This document shows positions 2,133-12,374 of a stretch of DNA of 38,941 bases, one piece after another. The stretch comes from Candidatus Curtissbacteria bacterium RIFCSPLOWO2_02_FULL_40_11. Lineage in GTDB: Bacteria > Patescibacteriota > Microgenomatia > Curtissbacterales > GWA2-41-24. Position 1 is the first letter of the stretch. Each line of letters starts with the position of its first letter. The position numbers and the translations under genes were made by a program. Below the pieces are notes generated by a model. That model ran no database searches. It was not told where the DNA came from and saw only the letters and a program-made list of their open reading frames with translations. Location: NCBI GenBank assembly GCA_001776505.1, contig MFBV01000044.1, positions 1 to 38,941 on the forward strand. Reading direction: 5' to 3'.

Positions 2133-4340
2133 TTAGTATCTGTGCCTTGGACCTCTGTTTTTAAAATTTTTCGGGTCTGGTTTTGAGAACTTTCGATTTT
2201 GGAAATCTCTACCTCTTGTTTTGTCTTTATCTTTTCTATCTTCTCCTTCGGCGTTATTACCAAATATCATTGATAGATTAACTCTTCCCTGTTCATCAAT
2301 TTCTGCAACGCGGGTTTTTACTTTTTGCCCTACTTTAACAACGTCTTCAACCTTGTTAACCCTAAAAGGGGCTAACTTAGAAATGTGTACTAAGCCCTCT
2401 TTGCCAGGCAAAATTTCAACCATTGCTCCAAATGGTAAAATTCTTTTCACTTCACCTTCGTAGACTTCACCCACTTGAGCCTCTTTGACTATACCCTCAA
2501 TTATTTCTGCAGCCTTTTTGCAAGCATTTACATCCTTACTGCTAATTGTCACCGTACCTTCGTCGTTAATGTCAATTGCCGCTCCAGTGTTTGAGATTAT
2601 TTTATTAATTATCCTGCCTCCCGAGCCAATAACGTCTCCAATTTTACTTGGGTCAATCTTTACCAAAATTATTGTTGGGGCGTATTTAGAAACACTCCTT
2701 CTATATGTTGGAATTGTTGCAAGAATCTTATCTAAAATTTCTAGTCTCGCCTTTTTAGCTTTTGAAAGCGCTTCTTCTAATATTTTTACAGGGATACCAT
2801 CAAGTTTAATATCCATCTGGATTGCAGTAACACCATTTTTGGTTCCCGCCACTTTGAAATCCATATCACCCTGAGCATCTTCTTGGTAAGCAATATCTGT
2901 TATCGTTACATAGTTCGATTTATCTTTTTTGTCGGTAATTAAGCCGATAGAGATGCCCGCTACTGGTTCTTTAATTGGGACTCCAGCATCCATTAAAGCT
3001 AAGGTTGAACCACAAACCGCAGCCATAGAGGTTGATCCTGCTGAAGACGTGATTTCAGTCACTACACGGATTGTATAAGGAAATTTATCGTTTTCAGGAA
3101 TAACAGGCCGGATGGCTTTTTCTGCTAATGCACCATGACCAATTTCTCTCCTACCGGGTGCTCCACGTCTACTGACCTCCCCAACCGAAAATGGGGGGAA
3201 ATTATAGTGGTGCATGTATCTTTTTGTTTCCTCACCTTCCATCCCCTCGATTAATTGCTCCAATGCTGGAGATCCAAGGGTGGCTATCGAGATTGCTTGC
3301 GTTTCGCCTCTTTGAAAAATTGCCGATCCATGCGTTCTTGGTAATACCTCGACTTTTGTAGTTATGTCTCTTATTTCATCAGGTGATCGACCATCTGTTC
3401 TTTTCTTATTTATAAGGATTTTGTCTCTTAGAATATTAGCAACTTCCTCATCAAGAATGTCGGAAAGAATTTTAGAATTTAATGATTCTTCATCCTCTTT
3501 TATAAACTCAGCAGTTAATGTTTCTATTTTTTCTTCAAACCACCCTTCATCCTGGCTAGCAGTTTTGAAATCTTCCATGAAATTATCTCGAATATATTTC
3601 TTTATTTTCGACTCATTCTCCTCGCTCGCTTTTTGGGGAACATATTCGTGCTTTTTTTTGCCAGCTTCTCTTGCCATATTTTCTATTTGAGAAATAACTG
3701 TTTTCCCTTGATCGAGACCAAACTTTATTGCCTCTACTACTGACTTTTCATCAGCCTCGGTAGCTTCAGCTTCAAGCATTACAACGTTTTCTTTACTGGA
3801 AGCTAATACGATTTCTAAATCGCATAATTTTCTCTCTTCTTCAGTTGGATTCAAGATATATTCCCCATTATGTTTGCCAACACGAACTCCAGATAATGGA
3901 CCATTCCAAGGTACGTCCGAAATTGCAAGAGCTGCTGATGTGGCTATTAGCGAAACGATATCTGGATCGTTTTGCTGATCGATGGAAAGTACAGTAATTA
4001 TTACCTGAACTTCATTTTGAAAATCTTTCGGGAACAGTGGTCTTATACTTCTGTCGATTAATCTTGAAGTCAAAACTGCGGCTTCAGTTGGCCTGTTTTC
4101 GCGTTTAATAAACCGCGAGGTGGATATTTTGCCACCAGCATATAATTTCTCTTCGTAGTCTACTGAGAGCGGGAAGAAACCGATATCTGTTTTGGGGGTC
4201 TGAGTTACTACCGTAGCTAGAACTACTGTTTCTCCATAAGAGGCAAGCACAGATCCGTTCGCTTGGAGTGCTATTTCTCCGGTTTCAAGAGTAAACTTCT
4301 TGCCACCAAGATCAAATTCTTTTCTTATTTTTTTATTCAT
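2133..4340 (-). CDS. pnp: Polyribonucleotide nucleotidyltransferase (PNPase)
   Basis: FFPLSVDYEEK, RLIDRSIRPLFP, HHYNFPPFSVGE, RREIGHGALA, GDMDFKVAGT, then KH and S1 domains. Confidence 0.99.
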   Translation of the reverse strand: MNKKIRKEFDLGGKKFTLETGEIALQANGSVLASYGETVVLATVVTQTPKTDIGFFPLSVDYEEKLYAGGKISTSRFIKRENRPTEAAVLTSRLIDRSIRPLFPKDFQNEVQVIITVLSIDQQNDPDIVSLIATSAALAISDVPWNGPLSGVRVGKHNGEYILNPTEEERKLCDLEIVLASSKENVVMLEAEATEADEKSVVEAIKFGLDQGKTVISQIENMAREAGKKKHEYVPQKASEENESKIKKYIRDNFMEDFKTASQDEGWFEEKIETLTAEFIKEDEESLNSKILSDILDEEVANILRDKILINKKRTDGRSPDEIRDITTKVEVLPRTHGSAIFQRGETQAISIATLGSPALEQLIEGMEGEETKRYMHHYNFPPFSVGEVSRRGAPGRREIGHGALAEKAIRPVIPENDKFPYTIRVVTEITSSAGSTSMAAVCGSTLALMDAGVPIKEPVAGISIGLITDKKDKSNYVTITDIAYQEDAQGDMDFKVAGTKNGVTAIQMDIKLDGIPVKILEEALSKAKKARLEILDKILATIPTYRRSVSKYAPTIILVKIDPSKIGDVIGSGGRIINKIISNTGAAIDINDEGTVTISSKDVNACKKAAEIIEGIVKEAQVGEVYEGEVKRILPFGAMVEILPGKEGLVHISKLAPFRVNKVEDVVKVGQKVKTRVAEIDEQGRVNLSMIFGNNAEGEDRKDKDKTRGRDFQNRKFSKPDPKNFKNRGPRHRY

Positions 4341-4342
4341 AT

Positions 4343-4440
4343 GTTAGAAAACTTAGATGAGGTAATGAGGAGTTAGAAATCGGAAAGTGAGAATCATAAA
4401 TGGTTCTTACTTCTCAACTTCCAACAACTCTTACCTAATC
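4343..4440. repeat. Inverted pair of degenerate 7-nt-period arrays in the pnp leader
   Basis: Purine arm (gaggtaatgaggagttagaaatcggaaagtgagaa) faces a pyrimidine arm (ttcttacttctcaacttccaacaactcttacc). Confidence 0.6.
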
Positions 4441-4477
4441 CTTAGTTATTTACCTCGTTATTATACTACAAACTTCC

Positions 4478-4494
4478 GAGGACTAAAAGTCCTC
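4478..4494. repeat. Short hairpin GAGGACT-AAA-AGTCCTC (possible terminator or repeat)
   Basis: Perfect 7-bp stem downstream of rpsO and its tail copies. Confidence 0.5.
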
Positions 4495-4498
4495 AGCT

Positions 4499-4536
4499 TT
4501 ATTTCTAGGTTAATCCCAACTTGTCATAATGTCTTT
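4499..4536 (-). pseudogene. rpsO: Second displaced rpsO 3'-end copy (decayed)
   Basis: AAA GAC ATT AT- GAC AAG TTG GGA TTA = KDI(I)DKLGL with a 1-nt deletion. Confidence 0.75.
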
Positions 4537-4569
4537 TAGACCGCTCGCGTTCGCAAGGACATTACCTTA

Positions 4570-4605
4570 TTACTTAGGTAAACCCAATTTATCTATTATA
4601 TCCTT
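4570..4605 (-). pseudogene. rpsO: First displaced rpsO 3'-end copy
   Basis: AAG GAT ATA ATA GAT AAA TTG GGT TTA CCT AAG TAA = [11 protein letters not shown], identical peptide to the rpsO end with 9 synonymous nt differences. Confidence 0.92.
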
Positions 4606-4673
4606 TATTAAGAACGGCGCACTATTGAAACAACGATTTCAATAGTAGTGTAGTCCTTAGCAAAGATATTATT
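4606..4673 (-). other. Structured spacer (attC-like hairpin) between active and displaced rpsO ends
   Basis: AATAATATCTTT-GC-..AAGGAC..ACTATTGAAA-TCGTTG-TTTCAATAGT..GTTCTT..TA; homologous to the spacer after rpsT. Confidence 0.7.
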
Positions 4674-4938
4674 TCGGCAAGCCTAGTTTATCAATAATAT
4701 CTTTATATCTTTCTGGCGCTTTTCTCGTTAAAAAATGAAGGAGTCGGCGCCTTTTATTGATCATTGATAGGAGGCCTCTCCTAGAGTGATTATCATGAGA
4801 GTGATTTTTTAGGTGATCTGCAACATTGCCAATTCTCTGAGAAAGAAGTGCTACCTGAACTTCTGGAGAACCGGTATCACCCTCGTGAGTTTTAAACTTG
4901 TCGATTACCTGTTTTTTTGCAGTCGATTTTGTAGCCAT
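4669..4938 (-). CDS. rpsO: 30S ribosomal protein S15
   Basis: [24 protein letters not shown]. Confidence 0.99.
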
Positions 4939-4964
4939 TTTGATAGGGGCTTAGTATATAGAAA

Positions 4965-6008
4965 TTATGATTCTCTGTCAAAAGATTTAGATCCTCGATA
5001 GACTTTAGGCGGTTTTAACCACGCTTTTTTAGAAGCTTCTTTTGATTCCACATCTTCAATAGGTATTGTAGATTGCTCTTCAGTGTATAAAGGATTATTG
5101 GGCCCTTGAATTGACGGGATAGTTGGTGATTTTACTCTTTGGATTCTATCCATGTTTGGTGATTGTGTCTGTTGGTAATTAATCCCGGATATTCTGTCTA
5201 TTTTAATATCTCGTTGCTTGAAGATTTTATCGTACGTATGTCTGCTTGCTAAATTCACCTCTCTAGACTCGCTGGCGAGGCTGGCTCTACCTGCTCCTAA
5301 TTGTAATAAATGCTTTGCTACCTCTAATGTTGAAGGCGCTGTAGATTTTGGGGAAAACATTTGGGTAGTTAATTTTATTCCAGAATATAAATTGAAAGAT
5401 ATATCTTCATCGAACGGCAGCGCAAGATCAGTAATAATTCTTGTGGTCAACTCGCTAATAGTCGCTGCTTCTGGATCATCGAGTTCAATTTGTGCAAATT
5501 TCTCGGGTGGTTTGTTTTTATTAATAGACATGATCCACTTAGTTGAACTATTAATTTGCTCACGAGTAATTTCATTATTCATTTCTCCTGCTGAACTGAA
5601 CCCAATCGCGATAACCGTGTCTGGGTAAGAAACACTTTTGTCCAGAGAAATACTATCTTCAGAAATTCCTTCTGCACCCGCAAGTGCGTGTACCTTAATT
5701 TTTAATTCATCACCTTCCAGGTTGTAAGTTACTTTATCCACTGTATTGATTGCATTGTTAATTACTATAACTAAGTCTTCTTTCCCTTGTAGTTTGCCGA
5801 TTTTATCCACACCATATAAGTTGTTCGCATCGTTAACTGTAGGTTCACTTGCTATTACATTTGCATTTTTACCTGTTTTTTTTATCGACAGATAAAGTGC
5901 AAGTCCAGATGCAAGACCGTCAAAACCGCTTTTTTTTGAAACAGCTATCAATATAGTTTGGGAATTAGAAAGTTTTTCAAGTATTTGTTTTTTTTGGAAA
6001 TCTTCCAT
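4965..6008 (-). CDS. DHH/NrnA-like phosphoesterase-fold protein (degenerate active site)
   Basis: DGLASGLALY, ATISEL and LYSGI..T..F motifs; no DHH triad; low-complexity C-terminus. Confidence 0.65.
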   Translation of the reverse strand: MEDFQKKQILEKLSNSQTILIAVSKKSGFDGLASGLALYLSIKKTGKNANVIASEPTVNDANNLYGVDKIGKLQGKEDLVIVINNAINTVDKVTYNLEGDELKIKVHALAGAEGISEDSISLDKSVSYPDTVIAIGFSSAGEMNNEITREQINSSTKWIMSINKNKPPEKFAQIELDDPEAATISELTTRIITDLALPFDEDISFNLYSGIKLTTQMFSPKSTAPSTLEVAKHLLQLGAGRASLASESREVNLASRHTYDKIFKQRDIKIDRISGINYQQTQSPNMDRIQRVKSPTIPSIQGPNNPLYTEEQSTIPIEDVESKEASKKAWLKPPKVYRGSKSFDRES

Positions 6009-10448: not shown

Positions 10449-12374
10449 TTAATCTTTGACTACTTCGCCTTCTTGAACTTCGCCGGAATCTTTGTCTTCT
10501 TTTTCATCTTTGCTGTTGGCTTTTTTCTTATCATCTGTCTGACCATTTGTTGATTGATCAGCCCCTTCTTGAGTTTGTCCTTGAGCTTTACTCATTGCTT
10601 CACCGATTTTTGATAGAGACGATGAAAGTTCTTCGGTCTTTTGCTTCACTTCGTCCACGGGACCAGCTGCCTGGATATCTTTTACAGCTTTAATTTTTTC
10701 CTCAACTTCTTTGCGTGTATCTTCGCCAACTTTGTCACCGGCGTCTTTTAGAGATTTCTCTGCTTGATACACAAGAGAATCAGCCTGATTTCTAGTTTCA
10801 ATTTCATCTTTTTTAGTCTCATCTTCTTTGGCGTGTTCTTCCGCCTCGCGGGTCATGCGCTTTATTTCCTCGTCAGTTAAGCCGGTCGAGCCAGTAATCT
10901 TAATTGATTGTTCTTTGCCAGAAGTTTTGTCTTTGGCTTTTACATTTAGAATTCCATTTGTGTCAAGATCAAAAGTTACTTCGACTTGTGGAACACCACG
11001 CGGTGCCGGGGGAATTCCGTCCAAAATAAATCTTCCAAGTGATTTGTCGTCTGTAGCCATTGGCCTTTCCCCCTGCAGTACATTTATTTCTACTGTGGTC
11101 TGATTGTCGGCGGCTGTTGAAAAAACTTCTGATTTAGAAGTTGGAATAGTAGAGTTTTTAGTTATTAGTGGGGTTGATACTCCACCTAAAGTTTCGATTC
11201 CCATTGTAAGTGGGGTGACGTCAAGCAGAACCATTTCTTTCATTTCGCCGGTTAATACTCCGCCTTGAACTGCAGCACCAACAGCTACAACCTCATCAGG
11301 GTTTAAGCCTTTGTGTGGTTCTTTACCGAAAAATTCCTGGACTTTTTTAACAACCAGCGGCATCCTTGTCATTCCACCAACAAGAATTACTTCGTCGATT
11401 TTTTTAGAGTCCAACTTTGAGTCTTTAAGCGCAGTTTCGACCGGCTTGAATGTTTTATCTACCAAATCGCCTACAATTGCTTCGAGTTTAGACCTGGACA
11501 ATTTTACCTGCAAATGTTTTGGCCCGGCACTATCTGCCGTTAAGTAGGGAATCGAAACTTCTGTTTCTGCGGTACCTGAAAGTTCTATCTTTGCTTTTTC
11601 GGCAGCATCTCTTAGGCGCTGGAGAGCTTGCTTATCATCTTTAACGTCGATTCCCTGTTCTTTTTTAAACTCAGATGCCAGAAAGTCAATAATTTTGGCA
11701 TCAAAATCGTCACCACCTAAATGAGTATCACCGTTCGTCGCCTTTACTTCGAATACTCCTTCGCCAAGTTCAAGAATTGAAATATCGAAAGTTCCGCCGC
11801 CAAGATCGTAAACAGCAATTGTATGAGCGTGGGATTTATCCAATCCATAAGCAAGGGCTGCTGCGGTTGGTTCGTTGATGATTCTTTCAACTTTGAAGCC
11901 AGCAATTTCCCCGGCTTGTTTGGTTGCTTGTCTTTGGGAGTCGTCGAAATAAGCTGGAACCGTAATTACTGCTTTTTCTACTTTTTCCCCAAGATAACTT
12001 TCGGCGTCTTTTTTAATTTTCCCCAAAACCATTGCCGAAATTTCCTGAGGTGTATAATCTCTTCCATCTACACTGACGACAGCCATACCCTCACGGCCAT
12101 CTTTGATTTCGTAAGGAAGCCATTTAAGATCTTTTTGGACTTCGGGATCTTTGTATTTTCGTCCCATCAGACGTTTCACTGAAAATACAGTAGTTTTCGG
12201 ATTAACGACCATTTGTCTTTTTGCGGGTTCACCCACAACGTTTTTGGTTGGGTCTACAACAGAAGGAATTGTATTTTTGCCTTCGGCTGAGTGAATGATT
12301 TTTGGTTTACCGGCTTCTACAACAGCAACCGCTGAATTGGTAGTTCCTAAATCTATGCCGATGACTTTACTCAT
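10449..12374 (-). CDS. dnaK: Chaperone DnaK
   Basis: [36 protein letters not shown]. Confidence 0.99.

Follow-up and report, generated by a model that had tools for sequence, protein, structure and literature searches.

Why does the end of a single ribosomal protein gene stand three times in a row, with only the first copy joined to the gene? This question is raised by the spacer between rpsO, the gene for ribosomal protein S15, and pnp, the gene for polynucleotide phosphorylase, in the ultra-small groundwater bacterium Candidatus Curtissbacteria bacterium RIFCSPLOWO2_02_FULL_40_11 (assembly GCA_001776505.1, contig MFBV01000044.1); the whole stretch of DNA analyzed, 38,941 nucleotides (nt) long, is called the window here. 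The spacer measures 328 nt and contains two extra copies of the last eleven S15 codons. Our analysis indicated that the array was very probably made by serial insertion, and that a dedicated site-specific mechanism probably lies behind it. The fuller reading, which sequence comparison favors on balance, is that the spacer is a stack of two gene-less insertion cassettes, of 99 and 69 nt, that carry replacement gene ends and arrived by serial site-specific insertion.

Tail copies and units behind rpsO

The gene, its tails and its downstream neighbor are arranged as follows:

4669..4938, minus strand: rpsO (S15, 89 amino acids, aa), the live gene, from the open reading frame (ORF) list and matched in 61 of 61 relatives
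4669..4704, minus strand: copy 1, the live 11-codon tail with its stop codon, start of unit 1
4570..4605, minus strand: copy 2, a displaced intact tail, with a second TAA at 4567-4569
4499..4536, minus strand: copy 3, presumably the oldest displaced tail, frameshifted
2133..4340, minus strand: pnp (polynucleotide phosphorylase, 735 aa), the neighbor downstream, from the ORF list

Copy 2 was identical to copy 1 at 27 of 36 nt, and all nine differences were synonymous, so that the same 11 residues and a stop codon are encoded. The peptide identity of 11/11 exceeded the best value found in 2000 dinucleotide shuffles, which was 7, and the nucleotide local score of 27 was equaled by 6 of 5000 shuffles. 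Copy 3 reads K D I, then has a deletion of 1 nt in codon 4, continues with D K L G L, and reaches a TAA after more indels. Its nucleotide score of 18 was non-significant alone (481 of 5000 shuffles reached it). A peptide match that allowed one frameshift gave 8/11, with a maximum of 6 in 300 shuffles, and copy 3 sits at the position predicted by the unit architecture, right behind the CT(A) end of the second spacer. The case for copy 3 is thus made by the frameshift-tolerant peptide test and by its position, not by the nucleotide score. A preliminary description of this DNA had claimed that the tail is encoded three times with different codon choices and that the most distal copy is the most decayed. 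The three copies were found, the third with its frameshift, and decay does rise distally in the window; the comparison of copy 3 with shuffled sequence, which that description had proposed, came out in its favor for the peptide and not for the nucleotides. The term alternative C-termini had to be abandoned, because the peptide does not change from tail to tail and the gene runs into the first of them only. The array was reproduced without differences in contigs of four other public runs (for instance X9 record 25, 4393-4980). Of the 20 runs found to contain this DNA, none was listed as RNA.

Each unit, read in the sense of the gene, consists of a tail with its stop codon, a segment X', TTGC(G), a GC hairpin and CT(A), and the next tail follows immediately. 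X' is the reverse complement of the first 8-12 bases of the tail, which we call X, and it always ends in CTTT or CCTT. In unit 1 (4704..4606, 99 nt), X and X' form a perfect 12-bp stem from which the remainder of the tail and its stop codon loop out, and an 11-bp hairpin comes next; the fold predicted for the unit as single-stranded DNA has an energy of -13.1 kcal/mol (z -3.3). Unit 2 (4605..4537, 69 nt) has a degraded X:X' stem with one mismatch and a short GC hairpin. The spacer form YTT-GC...TA, expected ahead of both extra copies, was borne out as ..YTT GC .. (C)TA. The parts of the two units are:

4693..4704, minus strand: X of unit 1, formed by the 12 nt with which the live tail begins (inverted repeat I4, 12 nt, 100% complementary; DNA fold)
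4662..4673, minus strand: X' of unit 1, the reverse complement of X without a mismatch; it overlaps the stop codon, and its last bases before GC are CTTT
4606..4661, minus strand: type-A hairpin module of unit 1, with an 11-bp stem at 4620-4630/4637-4647 and an outer stem AAGGAC/GTTCTT, ending AATA
4537..4569, minus strand: spacer of unit 2, containing AATGTCCTT at 4555-4563 (what is left of X', mismatched to copy 2 at one base), followed by GCG, a short GC hairpin and GGTCTA

This spacer agreed at 24-25 of 31 positions with the one that belongs to the live unit in a same-genus genome.

Gene ends in relatives and the history of the array

The comparison covered rpsO and its downstream region in all 61 genomes returned by the relatives search; because these genomes are related to one another, fewer events took place than the counts suggest. 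Behind rpsO, extra tails or signatures of a unit stood in 14 of the 32 genomes of the window's family and in 0 of the 29 outside it. Recognizable extra tails, one or two of them, were present in 11 of the 14, and the remaining 3 had the 5' unit signature only; in one of these, the contig ends 13 nt past the rpsO stop codon, inside the unit. Two expectations of the preliminary description were confirmed here: the junction is fixed, with all 13 intact displaced S15 tails (11 loci) starting at the same Lys codon, and the copy number is variable, from 1 to 3 tails among the relatives. The displaced tails were preceded by CT(A) in 11 cases, by AATA in two type-A units and by CTT once, and the spacers ahead of them measured 20-64 nt in 13/13 cases. 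When X' was required to be complementary without mismatch over at least 7 nt, to pair from the first tail base onward and to be placed after the stop codon, it was present in 12 of the 14 unit-bearing rpsO loci, in 0 of the 18 single-tail loci of the family and in 0 of the 29 loci outside the family. As X' is confined to unit-bearing loci, it and the hairpin belong to the insert and not to the ancestral gene. In one same-genus genome, an apparent N-terminal duplication of rpsO (L008:1402-1501) was rejected as an assembly artefact, a scaffold gap of Ns with repeated flanks.

A close pair of genomes within the same genus provided the clearest view of how such an array changes. Their rpsO bodies were identical at 190 of 201 positions and the first 300 nt of pnp at 293; one genome has two tails and the other three, and the two units of the first correspond to units 2 and 3 of the second, with 34/36 identity in each shared tail and 30/31 and 39/40 in the spacers. 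The extra unit of the three-tail genome adjoins the gene body, and its tail differs from the next one at 8 of 36 positions. In the same genome, the newly displaced tail, which is live in the sister, has gained a Gly-to-Glu change and a mismatch in the X:X' stem. Because the two genomes differ by exactly one extra gene-proximal unit, the array is likely to grow at the gene side; the pair can be read as a natural before-and-after comparison that supports gene-side addition followed by decay. The repeated polar insertion proposed in the preliminary description gains support from this one extra unit. At the other end of the arrays, the most distal tail in relatives was followed directly by the native promoter context of pnp (stop codon, CTTGC, 17 nt and TATAAT), as is the single tail of unmodified genomes, and this shared context identifies it as the native tail.

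The changes between tails also have a direction. Live and displaced tails differed by 98 bases in synonymous codons and by 13 in nonsynonymous codons, so the divergence must have arisen when every tail was still in use as the end of a gene. Had an untranslated copy drifted where it stands, the ratio would be the opposite, and drift is thus contradicted by these counts. Moreover, displaced tails retained lineage-specific residues, with KEIINKLELPR found three times in one relative (L024) and KLELPK twice in another (L019), indicating that the donors were close kin. These data bear on the simplest alternative, an in-place tandem duplication of the 99-nt unit followed by drift. A direct repeat (D1) does have a spacing of 99 nt, and a true tandem duplication of a two-unit block exists elsewhere in the genome, on contig C22. 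Neutral drift predicts mostly nonsynonymous changes and indels, in conflict with the synonymous excess; the spacers of units 1 and 2 are of unrelated types; and the tail of the extra unit differs at 8 of 36 positions though the close pair is 95-98% identical there. We therefore consider tandem duplication extremely improbable.

The order of tail types does not fit a simple succession of insertions inherited by descent. The distal tail type of two same-genus genomes resembles the proximal tail of the window (31/36), and the distal copy of the window resembles the newest tail of those two genomes (about 24 of 27 positions, read by eye). Units or tails must then have moved between lineages, and the assumption of a shared vertical history fails. 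A rival account does without a dedicated element: patches of DNA from kin would be pasted in by homologous recombination in the gene body and illegitimate or short-patch joining, and recombination would then spread the tail-hairpin-tail segments of a donor. Different tail orders among same-genus genomes favor that account, as do tails that look foreign yet carry the residues of close kin, and the close pair adds four synonymous differences clustered 34-45 nt upstream of the new unit. The 33 nt bordering the junction of the new unit are identical in the pair, so that no co-conversion tract is evident, and the last 100 nt upstream of it hold 6 differences against a background of about 5 in 100, both being weak tests. 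Illegitimate joints should furthermore scatter, whereas the 13 rpsO junctions fall at one bond, and X' anchored at the first tail base, seen in 12 of 14 unit loci, was found in 0 of 47 loci lacking a unit.

Modules at other genes and the insertion site

The same cassettes were found elsewhere in the genome. A hairpin 88% identical to that of unit 1 was located behind rplL (contig C26), between a live 21-codon tail and its recoded copy, and there the X:X' pairing extends over 14 nt. Among the 61 genomes, the type-A hairpin gave 22 matches in 15, and a metagenome scan with it returned the same rplL locus only, twice. A scan of ORF ends in the own genome added the PPase gene (27-codon tail), fusA, and genes on contigs C41, C45 and C23, together with one array of four tails with 21-nt mini-units. 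A gene of 444 aa on C22 (reverse-strand 11540-11900) carries a five-deep array of the tail KEFLDSLSKDVK*, in which the Ser codons alternate between TCN and AGY and which includes the exact tandem duplication mentioned above. On C18 (reverse-strand position 42040), a unit of the second module type, described below as type B, lies in frame inside a protein gene, adding 18 codons with the hairpin translated; its parts are a copy of X of 9 nt, a loop of 3 nt, X' and the module. Since this unit has a mere 9-nt copy of X, duplication of X seems to be intrinsic to the element and not a need of the host.

Type-A hairpins were also seen antisense beside tRNA genes, with a duplicated fragment of the tRNA 3' end (C8:4532-4559, L135, L139, L147 and L150-L152), and in at least one case the hairpin appears to split the tRNA-end copy in the T-loop region.

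The type-B module was defined by the pattern TTGCGGTSCTC, a variable hairpin and TGCGSGYCT. This pattern gave 116 matches in 25 of the 61 genomes (1-13 per genome), and the reversed pattern, used as a control, gave 0. All the matches were within the family, in 24 of the 31 other family genomes compared with 0 of the 30 genomes outside. In a collection of one genome per species (185,579 species), type B was found in 68 stretches, mostly from records titled Candidatus Curtissbacteria, and one of the run contigs, from another organism, shows its S15 tail followed by a type-B unit. Many of the type-B records (L159-L217) are titled 'uncultured Gammaproteobacteria', and these automatic labels look wrong. 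The outer stem covaries among 71 modules, with C-G in 65, G-C in 5 and one exception, and a T.G wobble is kept throughout. The inner stem reached at least 4 bp in 69% of modules compared with 10.6% of shuffles, with 63 distinct inner sequences.

Conserved pairing of this kind raises the possibility that the repeats act as RNA, either in the manner of an intron or processing element or through a regulatory structure in the 3' untranslated region or pnp leader, with tails translated from processed transcripts. Displaced tails that stay open and synonymous, a module 3' end in frame with the following tail, and a wobble (G.U in RNA) preserved through a covarying stem would all suit such a role. 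No Rfam 15 match was obtained at the gathering threshold in the window, and four unit-bearing loci searched at E<=1 gave just a chance snoRNA match (E 0.61). Units point either way with respect to the gene that they affect, some being antisense to tRNAs and others lying ahead of genes on the opposite strand; distal tails contain frameshifts and nonsynonymous changes; and the structure is wholly absent from single-tail relatives. An RNA element is hence a very improbable explanation.

To describe the insertion site, we used 69 type-B modules with usable flanks (62 from 20 genomes, plus rpsO loci and the own genome). In 27 of them, a generic left arm (AAGCARAGCTT) is set into the stop codon, with T^AA regenerated; 26 have a specialized arm with a perfect X:X' of 7-13 nt; and 16 have an imperfect or other left arm. 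The left flank was AT in 44 of 53 units, which was not imposed by the search pattern, and the right flank began with AAA or AAG in 52 of the 69 modules, giving AT^AAR as the insertion site. The AAR present on both sides of a unit may be either a target duplication or a crossover core. Units also replace the first codons of opposite-strand genes, as at two glycosyltransferase heads (L083 and L085). On the module strand, the host segment that is duplicated was in every case 3' of the insertion point, irrespective of how the host gene is oriented. This strand rule, together with the in-frame unit on C18, whose tail copy has no coding purpose, points to a strand-specific DNA mechanism.

The conserved module thus recurs at genes of different kinds that are unrelated, at the ends of tRNAs, at the heads of genes and in frame, and AT precedes and AAR starts 44 of 53 units; both observations tell against the pasting of kin DNA by recombination alone, which we regard as unlikely. 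The site also bears on homing-type gene conversion, in which an endonuclease encoded elsewhere cuts the native tail, and repair copies an immune, recoded tail together with the hairpin. The outcome would be the same as in the 'carboxy-terminal duplication' by mobile ORFs described for fungal mitochondria, where the copies likewise differ mostly at synonymous sites (PMC3630166), and recoding as immunity would account for the many silent differences. AT^AAR, which is all that the target has in common across unrelated genes, is too short for a homing enzyme, gene conversion alone replaces and does not duplicate, and X' is left without explanation. In the rpsO loci searched, no endonuclease ORF was detected in or beside any unit. 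Small ORFs were seen between rpsO and pnp in two relatives (L034:340-708, 122 aa; L035:18710-18985, 91 aa), and both match no Pfam or NCBIfam family. Homing is consequently judged improbable.

The preliminary description had further proposed a test for cargo genes within the units, and none was found in any unit. The search extended 1.5 kb downstream in 30 loci and to 19 kb in 3, and it revealed no distant second tail, integrase, nuclease or Y1 gene. This result is relevant to a further alternative, that the units are worn junction scars of integrase-borne islands that successively targeted the 3' end of rpsO and lost their interiors. Islands at the 3' ends of tRNA, tmRNA and protein genes follow the same logic. 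The genome has four tyrosine recombinase genes (PF00589), type-A hairpins are often at tRNA 3' ends, and some displaced tails elsewhere in the genome sit behind 0.5-2.8 kb of cargo, all in keeping with islands. However, no gene lies within the rpsO units of any of the 14 unit-bearing loci, no distant tail copy was seen within 19 kb at the 3 loci examined, and independent deletions would not each leave the same 20-64 nt spacer design of X', TTGC, hairpin and CT. We therefore hold island scars to be quite improbable, somewhat more so than homing.

The remaining features of the locus lie outside the cassettes:

4953..4981, minus strand: promoter-like site of rpsO, TTGACA-17 nt-TATACT, 11/12, a consensus match only
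4476..4496, minus strand: GC hairpin (CTGAGGACT / AGTCCTCGG) located between copy 3 and a TATAAT-like box that would serve pnp; terminator-like on the opposite strand only (terminator scan)
4364..4432, minus strand: conserved pnp leader hairpin, belonging to the native downstream context and not to a cassette

The leader hairpin was found by motif in 29 of 30 family loci (homologous stretches L002-L030), 25 of which were aligned. It has an invariant 11-bp stem (GUUGGAAGUUG / CGAUUUCUAAC, with G.U pairs) under a covarying stem, and 9 of the 24 predicted pairs showed compensatory changes. It matches no Rfam family and may be an autoregulatory or RNase III-type leader. In one relative (L027:1883-1966), the leader loop holds an extra GC hairpin (TCCGCCAGCTGGCGGA) like the type-B inner stems. 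The window contains no tRNA.

Proposed mechanism, candidate enzyme and known systems

According to the mechanism that we propose for the cassettes, each would enter at the same phosphodiester bond, TAT^AAR, ahead of the Lys codon, and would push the tail in use downstream, where decay would follow; the order from the gene to pnp would therefore run from youngest to oldest. Before being carried in, each tail would have evolved in another lineage as a gene end in use, which would account for differences that are almost solely synonymous. The cassettes would be non-autonomous, strand-specific DNA elements acting as folded single strands, in which X' would pair with the element's own X and set the left cut, and would pair with matching host sequence and so choose the AT^AAR target. 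The right cut would follow CT(A), and a trans-acting nuclease or transferase would cut and join. Since the left cut could fall inside a gene, the gene end would travel with the module, and in essential genes the survivors would be only cassettes with a complete gene end. We suggest, as a tentative proposal, that these cassettes represent a new class of miniature single-strand DNA element in which X' is a 7-14-nt DNA guide for excision and AT^AAR insertion, with gene ends carried between lineages.

For the enzyme, proteins resembling REP-associated tyrosine transposases (RAYTs; REP, repetitive extragenic palindromic) are the best candidates. The own genome (0.94 Mb) has eight PF01797 (Y1) genes of 200-231 aa, located as follows:

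C37:20321-20935, C26:543-773, C32:23406-23732, C36:379-1005: Y1 genes of the own genome
C13:22323-22553, C30:3264-3938, C26:5503-6207, C35:4935-5078: Y1 genes of the own genome, the remaining four

The best NCBIfam match of the eight was REP-associated tyrosine transposase, at 68.6 bits, under the cut-off of 80, and at least one PF01797 gene was present in 46 of the 61 relatives, with up to 13 copies. Every Y1 gene of the own genome has a flanking GC palindrome peculiar to it, and ..CT^AAAR, as in the cassettes, is the end of several of these palindrome families. Two of the eight Y1 genes sit between a live tail and its displaced copy, and the sequence at the end of the Y1 element on C30 recurs in a displaced-tail spacer on C38. 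The E. coli enzyme TnpA-REP is described as cutting single-stranded DNA at a CT that adjoins an imperfect hairpin (PMC3479197). The own genome yielded no TnpB (PF07282).

Paired REP-like palindromes of the CACCTCGGAGGTG family, which flank the C30 Y1 gene, were also seen at 30304-30355 (plus strand) of the window and at about 20 other places in the genome.

Several points weigh against the proposed mechanism and against the Y1 link in particular. No observation explains how a whole gene tail is captured together with a matching X'. Contigs of X9, X11, X13 and X14 contained no unit-less form, no excised form and no joint inside the array. No Y1 gene was found within about 1.2 kb of a type-B module (68 loci, 471 kb, with 4 Y1 genes in all), and none adjoins type-B modules in the 61 genomes or type-A modules at rpsO or rplL. 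A search of the own genome for type-B left and right ends with a gene-sized gap between them gave nothing convincing. Four family genomes with 3-7 modules have no detectable Y1 gene (86-89% complete), and the counts of modules and Y1 genes do not visibly co-vary. Finally, the cassettes are without the GTAG or CGTC tag of classical REPs, and their left cut would follow AT, not CT. Because of the missing adjacency, the module-bearing genomes lacking Y1, the unrelated counts and the absent tag, the assignment of the cassette enzyme to a RAYT-like Y1 protein is kept as a doubtful possibility.

Other known systems share parts of this design. Integrative elements at gene 3' ends may bring a substitute end, as do phage 21 and e14 at icd, islands at tRNA and tmRNA genes, and accreting integrative and conjugative elements and their cis-mobilizable derivatives (ICE/CIME accretion). 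As with the units, the element supplies the gene end, the native end is displaced distally, and an ordered array builds up when integration is repeated; those elements extend over kilobases and have an integrase, whereas the units are gene-less and their repeated 'core' is AAR plus the variable X. The icd gene is described as a prophage site (PMC10111431). The closest counterpart in outcome is the mobile-ORF carboxy-terminal duplication reported at atp6 of Allomyces and at atp6, atp9, cox2 and nad3 of Glomus. In that account, a foreign C-terminal segment stands in frame with the gene body and the native one is stranded downstream, with DNA that is divergent and protein that is little so (PMC3630166). 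The fungal inserts described there hold a LAGLIDADG or GIY-YIG endonuclease gene of about 1 kb, whereas the units hold no ORF. The bacterial units are also 69-99 nt long, with hairpins and an internal complement of the tail start, and they stack three deep at rpsO and five deep at another gene.

Integron arrays grow by small units, each with a recombination site that folds, which join at a single fixed point next to the fixed gene or promoter, and their order records history. By comparison, the ends of the cassettes (TTGCGGTCCTC and TGCGGGCCT) are without the GTTRRRY core, no attI or IntI was identified (the check for IntI being the four PF00589 matches only), and the cargo is a gene tail only. 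The palindromic elements of Rickettsia are hairpins tolerated in frame inside essential genes, a likeness shared by the unit on C18; to our knowledge, they do not carry replacement gene ends or stack behind stop codons. The guide of IS608 is 4 nt long and pairs with the flank, whereas the putative guide X' measures 7-14 nt and would pair inside the element with a mimic of the 3' side of the target. Elements of the IS200/IS605 type and their gene-less derivatives, palindrome-associated transposable elements (PATEs), are described as having subterminal hairpins, no terminal inverted repeats, strand-specific insertion 3' of a short fixed sequence and no classical target duplication, with base pairing within the element defining the cut (PMC6006769), a set of features that the cassettes may share. 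A template and variable-repeat system of the diversity-generating retroelement kind was dropped, as the copies also differ at bases other than adenine; no search for a reverse transcriptase was made.

REPs and bacterial interspersed mosaic elements with their RAYTs resemble the cassettes in being short imperfect GC hairpins repeated across a genome, with RAYT-type Y1 HUH proteins present, and in the CT at which the E. coli enzyme cuts (PMC3479197) and in which most cassettes end. Classical REPs are described as extragenic, with a GTAG/CGTC tag, hundreds of copies and no host gene segment (PMC3479197; PMC6006769). The type-B modules, in contrast, number 1-13 per genome, enter coding sequence at AT^AAR and carry gene ends; their feet are TTGC on the 5' side and TGCGGGCCT on the 3' side, with no GTAG and with CGTC just inside some inner stems. 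Our literature searches, made without supplementary files, returned these analogues and no description of gene-less, tail-carrying cassettes in bacteria of the candidate phyla radiation (CPR).

The cassettes have practical consequences, as displaced tails and in-frame modules will mislead gene callers, ribosomal-protein phylogenies and recombination scans, and assemblies tend to break at the cassette repeats. For the biology of these ultra-small CPR bacteria, the finding means that genomes with scarcely any spare DNA are nonetheless entered repeatedly by gene-less inserts, at a defined bond, in the ends of the most conserved genes (those for S15, L7/L12 and EF-G, the PPase gene, and tRNAs). 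If X' does act as a guide, insertion into an essential gene would be harmless and in principle retargetable by changing X and X', and the enzyme could be either a protein not yet recognized or a Y1 nuclease of the RAYT kind, in which case a mobilizing role would be demonstrated for RAYTs. If the proposed mechanism is true, it would amount to a compact, possibly sequence-guided DNA insertion that spares its target gene; it would offer a route for short gene segments between lineages, and the stacked tails would stand as a natural record of past events.

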